Assembly (NCBI GenBank): GCA_045536525.1
Contig: JAZSNT010000004.1
Span: 6,910 to 70,909 of the forward strand
Direction of reading: 5' to 3'
From: Acutalibacteraceae bacterium
GTDB taxonomy: Bacteria > Bacillota > Clostridia > Oscillospirales > Acutalibacteraceae
DNA: 64,000 bases
Positions 2,987 to 55,360 of the stretch are shown in pieces. Each line of letters starts with the position of its first letter. Position 1 is the first letter of the stretch. Both the position numbers and the translations under genes were made by a program. The notes under the pieces were generated by a model, which made no database searches, was not told where the DNA came from, and was given only the letters and a program-made list of their open reading frames with translations.

Positions 2987-4338
2987 AACAACTACCGATT
3001 GCATACCAAAACCGAATGAAAAATTTACTGGGCGCAGATTTTGAAAGTTACCTTTTGGAACTTGAAAAACCGCCTGTAAGGGCTTTCAGGGTTAATACCG
3101 ATAAAATAAGTATAGAAGATTTTCAAAAAATAAATATCTTTGGCACAAATAAAATTCCCTACGTGGATAACGGTTTTTACCTTGATTTCGATAAAGTGGG
3201 CAACCACCCCTACCACCACGCAGGGCTTATTTATGTGCAAGAGCCTGCGGCAATGGCACCTAGCGAATGTATAGATATAGATCCCGATTGGTGCATACTT
3301 GATATGTGCGCCGCTCCCGGTGGCAAAAGCACCCAACTTAAAAATAAACTGTCTGAAAATGGTGTGCTTGTATCTAACGAGATTATCGCTTTCCGCTGCA
3401 AAATACTTACAGGTAATATAGAACGTTTGGGTCTTCAAAATGTTGTTACCACTTGTATGGATACGAGAAAACTCGCACGTACTTTCCCCGATACGTTCGA
3501 TTTGGTTATGGTTGACGCTCCCTGCTCGGGCGAAGGTATGTTCAGAAAAGAAGAAATCGCCGTTGATGAATGGAGCGAAGAAAACGTTACTATGTGCACC
3601 GCCCGTCAGGCAGAAATTTTAGAAAATGCCACAAAGGCGCTTAAAAGCGGTGGTTATATCGTGTATGCTACCTGTACTTTTTCATTACAGGAAAACGAAA
3701 TGACGGTTGATTATTTCCTGCAAAACCACCACGATTTTGAACTTGTAAAAGCAAACGAAAAAGTTTCCGAGTACACCTGCGACGGTATAAATTTTGATGG
3801 TTGCAAGTGTGAAAACATCCACTTTGCCCGTAGATTTTACCCACATAATGCAAAGGGCGAAGGTCAATTTATGGCGGTATTACACCACAAGGGTGAAAAA
3901 ATGCTCGAAAATACTGTCACCCAAAAACCACAAAAGACAGATAAAATCGTCACCGATTTTTTGAACGACACCCTTACCGACTACAACCCCGATTACATAC
4001 ACGAATATAATAAAAACCCGATATATTACAATAACCGACTGCCCATAAAAGACGGTCAGGCATTTTGTTGCAGTGTGACTATCGGCGAAATCAGAAAAAA
4101 TTATATTCTGCCCCACCACCAGTTTTTTATGGCGTTAGGTCACAAATTCAAGCGAAAAATAAATCTGTCACCCGATAGTACAGAACTTAGCAAATATCTG
4201 CACGGCGAAGAATTTGACACCGATTGCGAAAATGGTTGGGCGGTTGTAATGGTGGACGGTTTTTCCCTCGGTGGAGCAAAAGTCACAAACGGCAAAGCCA
4301 AAAACCACTACCCAAAAGGATTAAGAATGAAATACTAA
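2983..4338 (+). CDS. NOL1/NOP2/Sun family rRNA cytosine-C5 methyltransferase (RsmB/RsmF-like)
   Basis: 451 aa with SAM-MTase motifs DMCAAPGGKS, VDAPCSGEGMFRK and ATCT, plus a C-terminal extension as in RsmF-type enzymes. Confidence 0.8.
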   Translation: MKQLPIAYQNRMKNLLGADFESYLLELEKPPVRAFRVNTDKISIEDFQKINIFGTNKIPYVDNGFYLDFDKVGNHPYHHAGLIYVQEPAAMAPSECIDIDPDWCILDMCAAPGGKSTQLKNKLSENGVLVSNEIIAFRCKILTGNIERLGLQNVVTTCMDTRKLARTFPDTFDLVMVDAPCSGEGMFRKEEIAVDEWSEENVTMCTARQAEILENATKALKSGGYIVYATCTFSLQENEMTVDYFLQNHHDFELVKANEKVSEYTCDGINFDGCKCENIHFARRFYPHNAKGEGQFMAVLHHKGEKMLENTVTQKPQKTDKIVTDFLNDTLTDYNPDYIHEYNKNPIYYNNRLPIKDGQAFCCSVTIGEIRKNYILPHHQFFMALGHKFKRKINLSPDSTELSKYLHGEEFDTDCENGWAVVMVDGFSLGGAKVTNGKAKNHYPKGLRMKY

Positions 4339-6675: not shown

Positions 6676-6762
6676 ATGGTTACATACGAAGAACTGTTCC
6701 TTTTAGGAACTCTTTTAGTGTCAATTATAGCACTTGTTATCAACATAACAAAAAAGAAATAA
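6676..6762 (+). CDS. 28-aa hydrophobic peptide, Hol-Tox / type I toxin-like
   Basis: MVTYEELFLLGTLLVSIIALVINITKKK has one TM segment and a KKK tail. The RBS AAGGGGGTG lies 6 nt upstream. A ~100-nt hairpin-rich leader precedes it and the terminator ACCGC...GCGGT-TAATTTCTTTT follows it. It is below the ORF-track size cut-off. Confidence 0.55.
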   Translation: MVTYEELFLLGTLLVSIIALVINITKKK

Positions 6763-13286: not shown

Positions 13287-13323
13287 CTATATATTACAAA
13301 GTTTACCCCACTTGGCCGCCGCC

Positions 13324-13360
13324 CCCAATAACTAATGGCTCTGCCGTTAGTGATATTGGG
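13324..13360 (+). promoter_or_regulatory. oriT-like imperfect inverted repeat upstream of the element-2 relaxase gene
   Basis: CCCAATAACTAA...TTAGTGATATTGGG lies about 65 nt upstream of the mob start, followed by TTGACATTGTCAA. Confidence 0.4.
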
Positions 13361-13425
13361 TTATTGACATTGTCAAGCCCCCGTTTTAATCATCTATAAT
13401 ATCAGCAAACACGCCAAAGGGGGCA

Positions 13426-14718
13426 ATGACAATGGAAAATAACGTAACAATATCAACACACAACGGCAGCCAAGTGGCACGTCAACACAATCTGCGAAAT
13501 CCAAAGGTTATCGCAAAGGAAGACCACATTGATCCGAACGGTCATTTTGAGGTGTGGTTGGATGAAGATCCAAAAACCGCCTACGAAAGACTATTCGGGC
13601 AATCCGTCCAAGAATATAACGAACGTCAAACACGTGAAGACCGCAAGATTACCGATTATTACAAGCAAATTTGTGAAGACAAAAAGAAAAAACCCGTTTA
13701 TGAGCTTATTATCGGTATCTATGGCAAGAAAGCAGACGGCACTCCTATTTGCAGTAAAAATGACGGAAAGAGAATCCTCCGAGCATTTGTTGAGGATTGG
13801 GAAAGAAGAAACCCGCAGTTAAAACTTTGCGGTTTATACTATCATTGTGACGAGTCTGTGGGTATAAACGGCTCACAGGTCGGACACGTTCACATTGATT
13901 ATATCCCTGTTGGTGACGGATTCACTCGTGGTATGGGTATGCAAAGTTCTTTATCTCGTGCTTTAGAACAACAGGGTTTTGAATCGCAAGGATTGAATAA
14001 TACCGCCCAAATGCAATGGGAAAGCAGAGAAAATCAGTTTTTGGCAACACTTTGCGCACATGCGGGTTTTGAGGTTATTCGTGGCAACGGAAACAAAGAG
14101 CATTTAGACACCGCCACCTATAAAAAGGTTAAAGAACTTGAAGATTTACAAGAAAAACAGGCAACTTTGGTGCAGAGCTTTGCCCAAAAAGAGCAAGAAT
14201 ATCTTGAACTCCAAGATAAATTCGAAACCCTAAAGGCTCAAAAGAGCTTATCCCAAGCAGTTTTGGAAGCTTATGCCGAACCCGACTTTAAAATCGAGGT
14301 GCAACGTACCCCTGCAAAGAAAAATCCGATTACAAAGCAAGAAACCCCTGCACAAGTAACGATGGCGGAAACGGATTATCTCGTGCTGAAGGAACGAGCC
14401 GCCGCAACTACGTGGATTAAGAAAGCGATTGAAGAACTAAAATATATGGGTGCAAAGTTGACGCGTGAACTCAATCAGCGCCGTAGGGTTGCGGAGTTGC
14501 AAGAGCGAGCTAATTCAGCCGAGATAGAAGCCCGTGCCGCCGAAGTGAACCTTGCAAACGCCAAAGCCGAGATTGCCGATTTGCAACAACAAGCGTGGGA
14601 GCAACAAGAGTGGATGGAAAACCAAGTTACCCGAAACGGCAAGAGTATTTGGGAATTTTTTATGGACTTTATAACCAAACAGCACGAACGTGAATATATA
14701 GAACGTGACGAGCGATAG
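13426..14718 (+). CDS. MobV/Pre-family relaxase (long form with coiled-coil C-terminus)
   Basis: 430 aa with HNLR and HCDES...GHVHIDYIP histidine motifs in the N-terminal third, and a Q/E/A-rich coiled-coil C-terminal half. Confidence 0.75.
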   Translation: MTMENNVTISTHNGSQVARQHNLRNPKVIAKEDHIDPNGHFEVWLDEDPKTAYERLFGQSVQEYNERQTREDRKITDYYKQICEDKKKKPVYELIIGIYGKKADGTPICSKNDGKRILRAFVEDWERRNPQLKLCGLYYHCDESVGINGSQVGHVHIDYIPVGDGFTRGMGMQSSLSRALEQQGFESQGLNNTAQMQWESRENQFLATLCAHAGFEVIRGNGNKEHLDTATYKKVKELEDLQEKQATLVQSFAQKEQEYLELQDKFETLKAQKSLSQAVLEAYAEPDFKIEVQRTPAKKNPITKQETPAQVTMAETDYLVLKERAAATTWIKKAIEELKYMGAKLTRELNQRRRVAELQERANSAEIEARAAEVNLANAKAEIADLQQQAWEQQEWMENQVTRNGKSIWEFFMDFITKQHEREYIERDER

Positions 14719-14722
14719 AAAA

Positions 14723-14757
14723 ATCAGGTGTATCTCTTAAGGTACACCTGATTTTTT
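14723..14757 (+). terminator. Rho-independent terminator of mob
   Basis: ATCAGGTGTA / TACACCTGAT stem followed by TTTTTT. Confidence 0.75.
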
Positions 14758-14759
14758 AT

Positions 14760-15750
14760 GTTTTGGGACAGCTATGTGGGTTTAGGTTGGGACACGTATG
14801 TGGGATGTAAACAAAAAGGACGTCGGGCGTTTTCGGTTGAAATATCCCCCGAAACACCCACGTCCTATGTAGGAAACGGAGCTAAATGGACAGACTTCTC
14901 CCTTTGAGTGTTCAAAGGGGAGAAGTCCATAAGCTTAAGTCACGTCCTAGAGGTGAGGTTTCCGTATGCTTTTTTATTTGCCACCCTGACTTGTCAACCC
15001 ATTGCCTGATTGACGAACCATTTACGCATCTGTTCTGCGTGTTAACAGGTTCAACCCTGCACCGATACATAATTGTGCTATGCGTGTGCGATCTCTTCGC
15101 TATTGCCCTGAACCTTTTAAATATGATTACTCACTTGCATCTCATATTTTCACAATGGGGCACCGAACTGCACCGATTTAGGTTAACAGCCCGTAAGCTA
15201 ACAGCCATTATCAGCCACTGTCTATTCTTTTACTTGCTCACCAGTATTTTTCGCAATATAAACGAGTATCAAGCAACAAAACTTGTAGGAAACACAGGGT
15301 GGAGTGTCCCACACGCTTCACATTTTTTTAGGAGTGGTCGGTAGACCTGCAATTTTTAAAGAGATTTGCTCCAAAACTCTCTGTGATTCAGTTGTAATGT
15401 CCCGTGTTGCTTTAATAATGCCGCCAATTAGCACCAACCACGAAATAGATACAATTTTATTTAATATTCGGTCAATGGTTATGGTTAAGGATACTTCCTG
15501 AAAGCACCATTACAAGACAATAATAATATAGAATATTGTTTTTGGAGCTTTTGCCCCTACCACTAAAACGTCAGTCGATATAATCACTATGTAGGCTGAA
15601 ATTTACAGTTGTAAAGTTAGTCATCTACGCAGTCCTCAAACTTGCGTTAGATAGACATTTTTCCATTTCTGCCCACATACAATTTAATATCGGGTAACGT
15701 GCGAACGTTACCGCCTTAAATAATTATATCTATCGGAAAGGCGGCAAACC
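14760..15750. other. ORF-free, hairpin-rich ~1 kb segment (candidate structured RNA or decayed cargo)
   Basis: No credible ORF on either strand; the two tracked ORFs are Cys/His/Leu-rich junk. Visible structure includes tandem 18-nt repeats at 14763-14780 and 14787-14804. Long hairpins lie at 14818-14865, 14893-14927 and 15693-15712 (GCGA loop). TGTAGGAAAC and CTGCACCGAT are each repeated. Confidence 0.4.
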
Positions 15751-15751
15751 T

Positions 15752-15880
15752 ATGAAAAAGGTTACCATTGAGTTCGAAGACGTTTTCGAACAAGGTAAAA
15801 GTTTCGGAGATTGCCTTAACGATCTCCTTGATACATACTACTCTGATGAGGGTGCGGAAGCACCCTCTATTTTTTTATAA
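15752..15880 (+). CDS. 42-aa acidic hypothetical protein upstream of the recombinase
   Basis: MKKVTIEFEDVFEQGKSFGDCLNDLLDTYYSDEGAEAPSIFL. An RBS-like GAAAGGCGG precedes it. The 3' end overlaps the terminator hairpin GAGGGTGC-ggaa-GCACCCTC plus a T-run (15848-15876). Confidence 0.3.
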   Translation: MKKVTIEFEDVFEQGKSFGDCLNDLLDTYYSDEGAEAPSIFL

Positions 15881-15897: not shown

Positions 15898-15926
15898 TTG
15901 ATTTTGTACCCTACTTTTGATATAAT
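15898..15926 (+). promoter_or_regulatory. Sigma-A type promoter of the element-2 recombinase
   Basis: TTGATT (15898-15903), a 17-nt spacer, then TATAAT (15921-15926). The spacer contains TTTGTACC, the same core as the element's terminal inverted repeats. Confidence 0.55.
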
Positions 15927-55205: not shown

Positions 55206-55360
55206 GTTGCAAAGTGCATTGCGTATCGGAATGTGCGAATGGGCGGGTCCTGTGCGACGGAATGCTACGAACCATGTCAGGCGGGGAACCGAGCAGCATT
55301 AAGTAGATTATTCTGTGCGCCGCAGTAAATCGGCTCATTCGTGCATTCGGGTACGCAACT
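55206..55360 (+). ncRNA. ffs: Signal recognition particle RNA (4.5S/scRNA)
   Basis: Domain IV signature GTCAGG (55276-55281)...GGAA...AGCAGC (55292-55297). The 5' arm GCGTATCGGAATGTGCGAATGGGC pairs with the 3' arm GGCTCATTCGTGCATTCGGGTACGC. The promoter is TTGTAA-17-TAAAAT (55173-55201), a T-run follows, and the position just upstream of dnaX is conserved. The ends are approximate. Confidence 0.8.

Follow-up and report, generated by a model that had tools for sequence, protein, structure and literature searches.

The gap of about 1 kb that follows the MobV relaxase gene of element 2, in the 64,000-nucleotide stretch of DNA analysed here (the window), seems, with a probability that we place a little above even, to be the gene of a discrete structured non-coding RNA (ncRNA) of about 710 nt, which would run from 15518 to about 14810 on the minus strand and converge with the relaxase gene. 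In relatives, the predicted RNA would be 0.7–0.9 kb long. The stretch shows conserved base pairing, a folding bias towards the minus strand and conserved ends; the folded molecule is presumably RNA, and presumably expressed. At that same slight preference, the RNA gene would form with oriT and the relaxase gene a conserved oriT-relaxase-RNA module. The module occurs in integrative mobilizable elements of gut Oscillospirales whose integrases and cargo vary.

The predicted transcription unit and its setting

The source genome is metagenome-assembled (1.6 Mb), and its relatives are, according to record titles, ruminant and other gut Oscillospirales. Element 2 comprises, from left to right, an XRE regulator, a 162-aa ORF without Pfam match, the MobV relaxase gene, the gap, a 42-codon ORF and the gene of a large serine recombinase. 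Polysaccharide deacetylase fragments are present around the element. A bacterial small SRP RNA of the ordinary kind is encoded elsewhere in the window (55241–55339, plus strand).

An earlier note, made from the letters of the sequence, had described the gap as gene-free, rich in repeats and hairpins, and more GC-rich than its surroundings. It is indeed gene-free: Pfam matches no frame from the relaxase stop at 14718 to the 42-codon ORF at 15752. The sole long ORF (14886–15344, 152 aa) is rich in Cys, His and Leu and is fragmented in the related loci L018 and L019, and Pfam gave no match for any of the longer frames of the gap in types A and B of the stretch (defined below). The 18-nt direct repeats are real (14763–14780 and 14787–14804, 16 of 18 positions identical, 24-nt period); allowing at most three mismatches, their pattern matches four times in the window versus 0.37 expected. 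The three hairpins that the note had claimed (14818–14865, 14893–14927 and 15693–15712) are all present, far beyond shuffled expectation, the last one with a GCGA loop at −12 kcal/mol (z −2.9). Dispersed exact repeats (8–10 nt) exist as well, but they are few. The GC content (0.43–0.47 at 14650–15250) is higher than on the recombinase side (0.31–0.37) but not than in the 3′ half of the relaxase gene (0.42–0.50), so that the claim of GC enrichment is right on one side only. The note was also right that there is no group II intron, since no Rfam match is seen even at E ≤ 10, and the Rfam comparison that it had recommended matches the stretch to no known RNA class. It had overlooked the terminator hairpin of the relaxase gene, and it had identified neither the minus strand, nor the promoter and terminator, nor the fact that the stretch goes with the relaxase and not with the recombinase. 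The features are collected in Table 1.

Table 1. Features of the relaxase module and of the gap behind it (positions in the window; +, plus strand; −, minus strand)
Feature	Position	Strand	Basis or remark
oriT-like hairpin upstream of the relaxase gene	13325–13360	+	Arms covary in the alignment
MobV (Mob_Pre) relaxase gene	13426–14718	+	Pfam PF01076; the gap module is linked to the relaxase
Relaxase-gene terminator hairpin	14718–14757		18 pairs, with an A-run and a T-run at its flanks; z −8.0
Two direct repeats TTGGGACAnnTATGTGGG	14763–14804		Between two convergent terminators
Predicted intrinsic terminator of the minus-strand transcript	14808–14865	−	Hairpin 1 (14818–14865), then UUUUUGUUU
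Predicted ncRNA transcription unit, type A, about 710 nt	14808–15518	−	Minus strand folds better than plus; predicted start near 15518, end at the U-run after the terminator hairpin
Hairpin 2, 15 bp	14893–14927	−	Common to types A, B and C
Type-A core, multi-hairpin region	14940–15398	−	Identity and predicted helices
Conserved motif UACAACUGAAU	15386–15396	−	Invariant in type A
5′ hairpin P1	15399–15518	−	RNAalifold columns 29–64 paired with 109–150
−10-like box TATATT within motif TTCTATATTATT	15525–15530	−	Hexamer TAnnnT conserved across loci
Rest of the gap: DNA upstream of the putative ncRNA promoter and leader of the small ORF	15531–15751		Includes the GCGA-loop hairpin 15693–15712

The upstream end of the predicted unit is marked by a −10-like box. 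Of the 17 loci checked, 16 have on the minus strand, at a distance of 800–935 nt from the relaxase stop, the hexamer TAnnnT within the motif TC(G)TCTATnnT (15 by motif scan and L044 by eye; L036 was not resolved). The relaxase promoter has the same motif as its −10 region. A canonical −35 is lacking at the box, and a generic promoter scan gave no call at this site. P1, the first predicted helix of type A, begins at 15518, 7 nt past the box; it shows compensatory changes at six pairs between the window and L018/L019, and in the window sequence by itself its fold is of low stability (z −1.2). The motif UACAACUGAAU comes directly after the −10 box in types B and C.

Two strong hairpins lie at the other end. 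Hairpin 2 (−23.8 kcal/mol, z −5.5 on the minus strand) has compensatory changes within type A and between types. Hairpin 1 reaches −31.3 kcal/mol on the minus strand (z −5.9) versus −24.1 kcal/mol on the plus strand. The equivalent of the terminator in subtype Bi and in type C is also a hairpin followed by a U-run, and the stem in Bi is fully paired on the minus strand only, by means of U·G pairs. Subtype Bii (L009, L011, L025) has no U-run after hairpin 1, and its ncRNA would end at the shared relaxase terminator. The latter probably works in both directions, and would serve the ncRNA as a back-up terminator, or as the main one in Bii.

In most types, the direct repeats lie between two convergent terminators, that of the relaxase gene and the predicted one of the ncRNA. 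The repeat motif is confined to the first ~115 nt past the relaxase stop (34 loci, a number that includes duplicate fetches of the same places). The repeats may be DNA sites, although an RNA motif may equally be considered. Read on the minus strand, the second of them is CCCACA-YNCG-UGUCCC, with UACG, UUCG, UCCG, CCCG or CUCG as loop. A motif of 6–9 nt is duplicated on either side of hairpin 2 (14930–14950 and 14858–14868), and its two copies vary in concert from type to type: UAGGACGUG in A, AGGACGGA in C, CUCAA(A)GACC in Bi and GGGGC in Bii. Alternative helices are suggested, since hairpin 1 uses the second copy as its 5′ arm in A, C and Bii.

Taken together as a mechanism, transcription would start on the minus strand about 7 nt past the −10 box (15530–15525), the RNA would fold into the 5′ hairpin, a multi-helix core and the conserved 15-bp hairpin, and the transcript would end at the strong hairpin and U-run (14865–14808), with the relaxase terminator behind it as a back-up.

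The DNA upstream of the putative ncRNA promoter (15531–15751) is poorly conserved, even in the alignment of the closest relatives. It contains on the plus strand, at 15693–15747, two overlapping hairpins upstream of the 42-codon ORF (15752–15880, plus strand). The first one is GGTAACGT-GCGA-ACGTTACC; the second one, TTACCGCCTT...AAGGCGGCAA, covers the ribosome-binding site. The pair may be a switch for the small ORF and the recombinase. The L006-8 loci have a different hairpin at the equivalent position. The 3′ end of the 42-codon ORF coincides with a terminator-like hairpin and T-run (15848–15876), and the recombinase has its own promoter, TTGATT-17-TATAAT, at 15898–15926. Element 1 carries a 28-codon hydrophobic ORF, MVTYEELFLLGTLLVSIIALVINITKKK, at 6676–6762 (plus strand) with a leader from about 6570, which we take to resemble a type I toxin of the Hol-Tox type. 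The leader block GGTGCTTTTGCACC of this ORF recurs as GGAGCTTTTGCCCC at 15544–15557, just upstream of the −10 box of the predicted ncRNA.

Related loci, conservation and folding

By a relaxase scan, 19 loci were obtained from species-representative genomes and 11 from metagenomes, and look-ups by protein identity gave 14 more; about 20 of the related elements in this comparative set are distinct, from Oscillospirales of ruminant and other guts. The relaxase clade itself is common, with 407 related clusters of proteins (E ≤ 1e-30). A gap of about 1.0–1.2 kb without a called gene is seen at every locus that extends far enough and whose relaxase is at least 72% identical, and public gene callers place no gene in the gap in 14 loci. 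The gap is kept whether the next gene is a serine recombinase gene or a Mom-like gene followed by a tyrosine integrase gene. In one genus, 8 of the 401 sampled genomes have the relaxase, and all 8 have the module. Loci with relaxases 45–49% identical lack the module; their contigs are small and plasmid-like and have iterons or Rep genes. The stretch therefore belongs to the relaxase and not to the recombinase, since it is constant across integrases and absent with the distant relaxases. The versions with a tyrosine integrase (L018, L019, L036-40, L044-45) have a Mom-family gene (PF25680, 194–206 aa) just beyond the putative ncRNA promoter. In the related locus L013, a Gut-1 RNA motif lies upstream of the relaxase module (3094–3168, minus strand).

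The stretch exists in three types: A (the window, L006-8, L017-19 and L047-49, in all of which the unit is kept), B (L009-16, L024-25, L036-43) and C (L044-45). On the relaxase side, all three have the terminator, the direct repeats, hairpin 1 and hairpin 2 in common, and at the far end a short motif. The cores (about 450–600 nt) of A, B and C are not alignable, and nhmmer and shared k-mers found no homology between them, so that the sequence common to the types is limited to the first ~200 nt past the relaxase stop and to the promoter end. The types do not track the relaxase phylogeny: type A occurs with relaxases 72–100% identical to that of the window, and type B with relaxases 82–88% identical. 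Other searches gave no DNA similarity to the stretch in a plasmid collection, neither exact core patterns nor the relaxase in viral contigs, no further copies in the source genome, only chance-level matches in 400 genomes of the window's own family and, at genus level, no loci beyond those already in the set.

The nucleotide sequence of the core is under selection, and it is non-coding. The core is more conserved than the relaxase gene in 55 of 55 same-type pairs (e.g., 0.92 vs 0.73 for the window and L018, and 0.86 vs 0.73 for L010 and L009), and part of this high identity could reflect a recent exchange of cassettes rather than constraint. The type-A core is 91–100% identical between loci, versus 71–93% for their relaxase genes. 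In type B, 35% of the core columns vary, versus 87% of the third codon positions of the relaxase gene. The variable sites of the core are distributed evenly by position modulo 3 (55/59/68, p 0.48), those of the relaxase gene are not (144/91/376), and the type-B core has 25 indel runs, mostly of 1–2 nt. A protein-coding gene or pseudogene was considered and rejected on the grounds of this lack of codon periodicity, the mostly 1–2-nt indels and the absence of any Pfam match.

The minus strand folds better than the plus strand. RNAalifold applied to nine type-B sequences predicts 195 pairs on the minus strand, of which 41 have compensatory changes, at −207.8 kcal/mol, and 172 pairs at −159.1 kcal/mol on the plus strand. 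The z-scores of the single-sequence minimum free energies are −3.6 (minus) and −1.7 (plus) for type A, −2.2 and −1.8 for type B, and −4.2 and −3.2 for type C. In a subdomain of 220 columns, 98.9% of the cells are paired, and nine pairs change on both sides, compared to 3.1 in shuffles (none of 500 reaches the observed value) and 0–3 in slid controls. Two helices of this subdomain have four covarying pairs each, and 8 of its 57 pairs are invariant G·U pairs. Loops alternate between sequences, GAGA with GAAA and GAAA with GCAA.

In a held-out test (six training sequences, five held out), 14 compensatory cells were counted, compared to 1–7 in the controls, together with 72 broken cells, which means that parts of the structure model are wrong or poorly aligned. 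The structures are partly derived from the alignments that were also used to test them, a large number of the predicted pairs do not vary at all or fail to form in the held-out sequences, and structures predicted from single sequences give noisy covariation counts on both strands. The power of the covariation analysis is modest because the set consists of about 20 distinct sequences in three types with unalignable cores. We therefore hold with moderate confidence that base pairing is conserved above controls, in 10–11 distinct type-B sequences.

At the Rfam gathering thresholds, the stretch has no match in the window or in 11 related loci. When the 4227 models of Rfam 15 were compared with types A, B and C at E ≤ 5–10, the best in-stretch E values were about 0.4–6, far below threshold; this comparison took in ROOL, GOLLD, OLE, HEARO, raiA and the group I and II introns. 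A limited full-text search of the literature found no description of this element.

Transfer origin and entering strand

The arms of the oriT-like hairpin exist in several variants: CTAATGG/CCGTTAG, CTTTTGG/CCGAAAG or CCAAAAG, and CCAATGA/TCATTGG. Two of the four have a T·G wobble on the plus strand, which on the minus strand would read as an A·C mismatch. The elements share conserved sequence from about 115 bp before the relaxase start onwards, and the onset of homology, at 13307–13313, is abrupt. The −35 of the relaxase promoter is overlapped by a palindrome beside the hairpin, TTGACATTGTCAA in the window and TTGCCATTGGCAA in relatives (13307–13425).

In pMV158, the prototype of the MobV family, oriT precedes mobM, and it is the coding strand that is transferred (PMC5863519). 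This precedent, and the wobbles that pair only on the plus strand, suggest that the relaxase-coding (plus) strand is the transferred one. In that case the relaxase gene would enter the recipient first and the gap second, a structure selected on the minus strand could not be a classical single-strand origin, and the RNA gene would belong to the leading region and be templated by the entering strand. Genes of the leading region are reported to have this same orientation (PMC11541004). An RNA gene so placed may act early in the recipient, in the establishment of the element. No hairpin that would make the putative ncRNA promoter double-stranded, as Frpo does, was seen by eye around the −10 box, and early transcription from single-stranded DNA thus remains speculation. 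A role of the RNA in transfer or establishment is a guess, which is based on the strict linkage to the relaxase, the position and the orientation.

Competing explanations and comparison with known systems

The main rival, which we consider rather unlikely, is that the stretch is a single-strand origin (sso) or another element active as single-stranded DNA, the folded molecule being the transferred or displaced DNA strand. Such an element would recruit RNA polymerase or primase for complementary-strand synthesis in the recipient, as ssoA, ssoU and sso1 do. It would be the better reading if the minus strand were the transferred one. Ssos exist as several interchangeable types among related plasmids, as types A, B and C do here. 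Like the stretch, ssoA and ssoU of pMV158 and sso1 of ICEBs1 are structured, non-coding, orientation-specific and beside a relaxase gene: in pMV158, the mob cassette lies between ssoU and ssoA (PMC5737340), and sso1, about 200 bp long, directly follows nicK (PMC4595007). An integrating element must moreover be double-stranded before it integrates (PMC4595007). On the contrary, the conserved structure favours the minus strand, the complement of the strand that the oriT wobbles and the pMV158 precedent indicate to be transferred; at about 700 nt, the stretch is three to four times longer than the 200 bp or so of sso1 (PMC4595007); a −10 box with a terminator 700 nt away agrees better with a transcript; and no intrastrand promoter hairpin was seen by eye. 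The last point also separates the stretch from Frpo/ssi elements, which it resembles, as it does the leading-region genes of conjugative plasmids, by a presumed leading-region position with the entering strand as template (PMC11541004). The predicted product here is an RNA and not an anti-defence protein, and the carrier is a MobV mobilizable element of Firmicutes and not a conjugative plasmid.

A role in double-stranded DNA, as binding sites for the relaxase, a regulator or host factors and with no function for a folded strand, is improbable for the stretch as a whole. It would account for the direct repeats, which are kept in all types, between two terminators in most, and are present nowhere else in the loci, and the TC(G)TCTATnnT motif of both promoters could be a common operator. 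It leaves unexplained about 600 nt of conserved sequence, the compensatory and one-sided, G·U-type changes and the strand bias of folding. The array of accessory sites envisaged in the earlier note may thus still hold for the two direct repeats only. Less probable again is an RNA-primed origin, in which the transcript would be a pre-primer like RNA II of ColE1 and the excised circle would replicate without a Rep protein. The likeness lies in a long structured RNA that adjoins the mobilization region, no rep gene being seen in element 2, and in a 5′ hairpin that diverges fast while its pairing is kept, as in the fast-evolving 5′ stem-loops of RNA II and in incompatibility determinants generally. 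The predicted RNA differs in that it stops at a strong intrinsic terminator instead of entering an origin; no conserved antisense promoter and terminator pair, comparable to RNA I, was identified in the 5′ hairpin; and the elements integrate via recombinases, a life style, and a phylum, different from those of ColE1. No ColE1-type origin is known from Firmicutes. The last explanation, a decaying remnant of a cargo gene or a neutral spacer, is already contradicted by the evidence and hardly deserves belief, even if the window contains an ORF of 152 codons and the region differs between lineages of the element (types A, B and C). That ORF is broken in L018 and L019, the indels break the frame, no frame tested has a Pfam match, no gene is called in the 14 loci mentioned above, and a core that is in all 55 pairs more conserved than the adjacent coding sequence, without codon periodicity, is not that of the gene wreck which the earlier note had listed among its options. 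The large structured ncRNA, another of these options, is the one that the evidence favours.

As a structured ncRNA, the product would resemble ROOL, GOLLD and OLE, which have several hundred nucleotides, many helices and no known protein partner. Large ncRNAs of the ROOL and GOLLD type are carried by mobile or phage DNA; ROOL and GOLLD themselves are found beside tRNA genes in prophage regions, whereas the context here is the relaxase module of integrative mobilizable elements. Unlike these RNAs, types A, B and C match no model of Rfam 15. ROOL was first found in rumen samples (named in PMC12286853).

A wider proposal, which we advance tentatively and regard as rather less than an even chance, is that the stretch encodes a previously undescribed class of large (0.7–0.9 kb) ornate RNA, which would be a working part of the MobV module, with its gene in the leading region and the transferred strand as template. 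The RNA would act in the establishment of the element in the recipient, for example by priming the complementary strand or by countering defence, and its core would exist in at least three interchangeable versions. Very few classes of large, highly structured bacterial RNA are known, and they repeatedly prove to be biologically unusual. If the stretch is instead an element that works at the DNA level, the MobV cassette would have in it an accessory of unusual size and conservation, of a kind undescribed for integrative mobilizable elements. If the RNA reading is true, an RNA tied to the relaxase module, and encoded in the first DNA that enters the recipient, would provide a testable link between structured RNA and horizontal transfer in gut bacteria.
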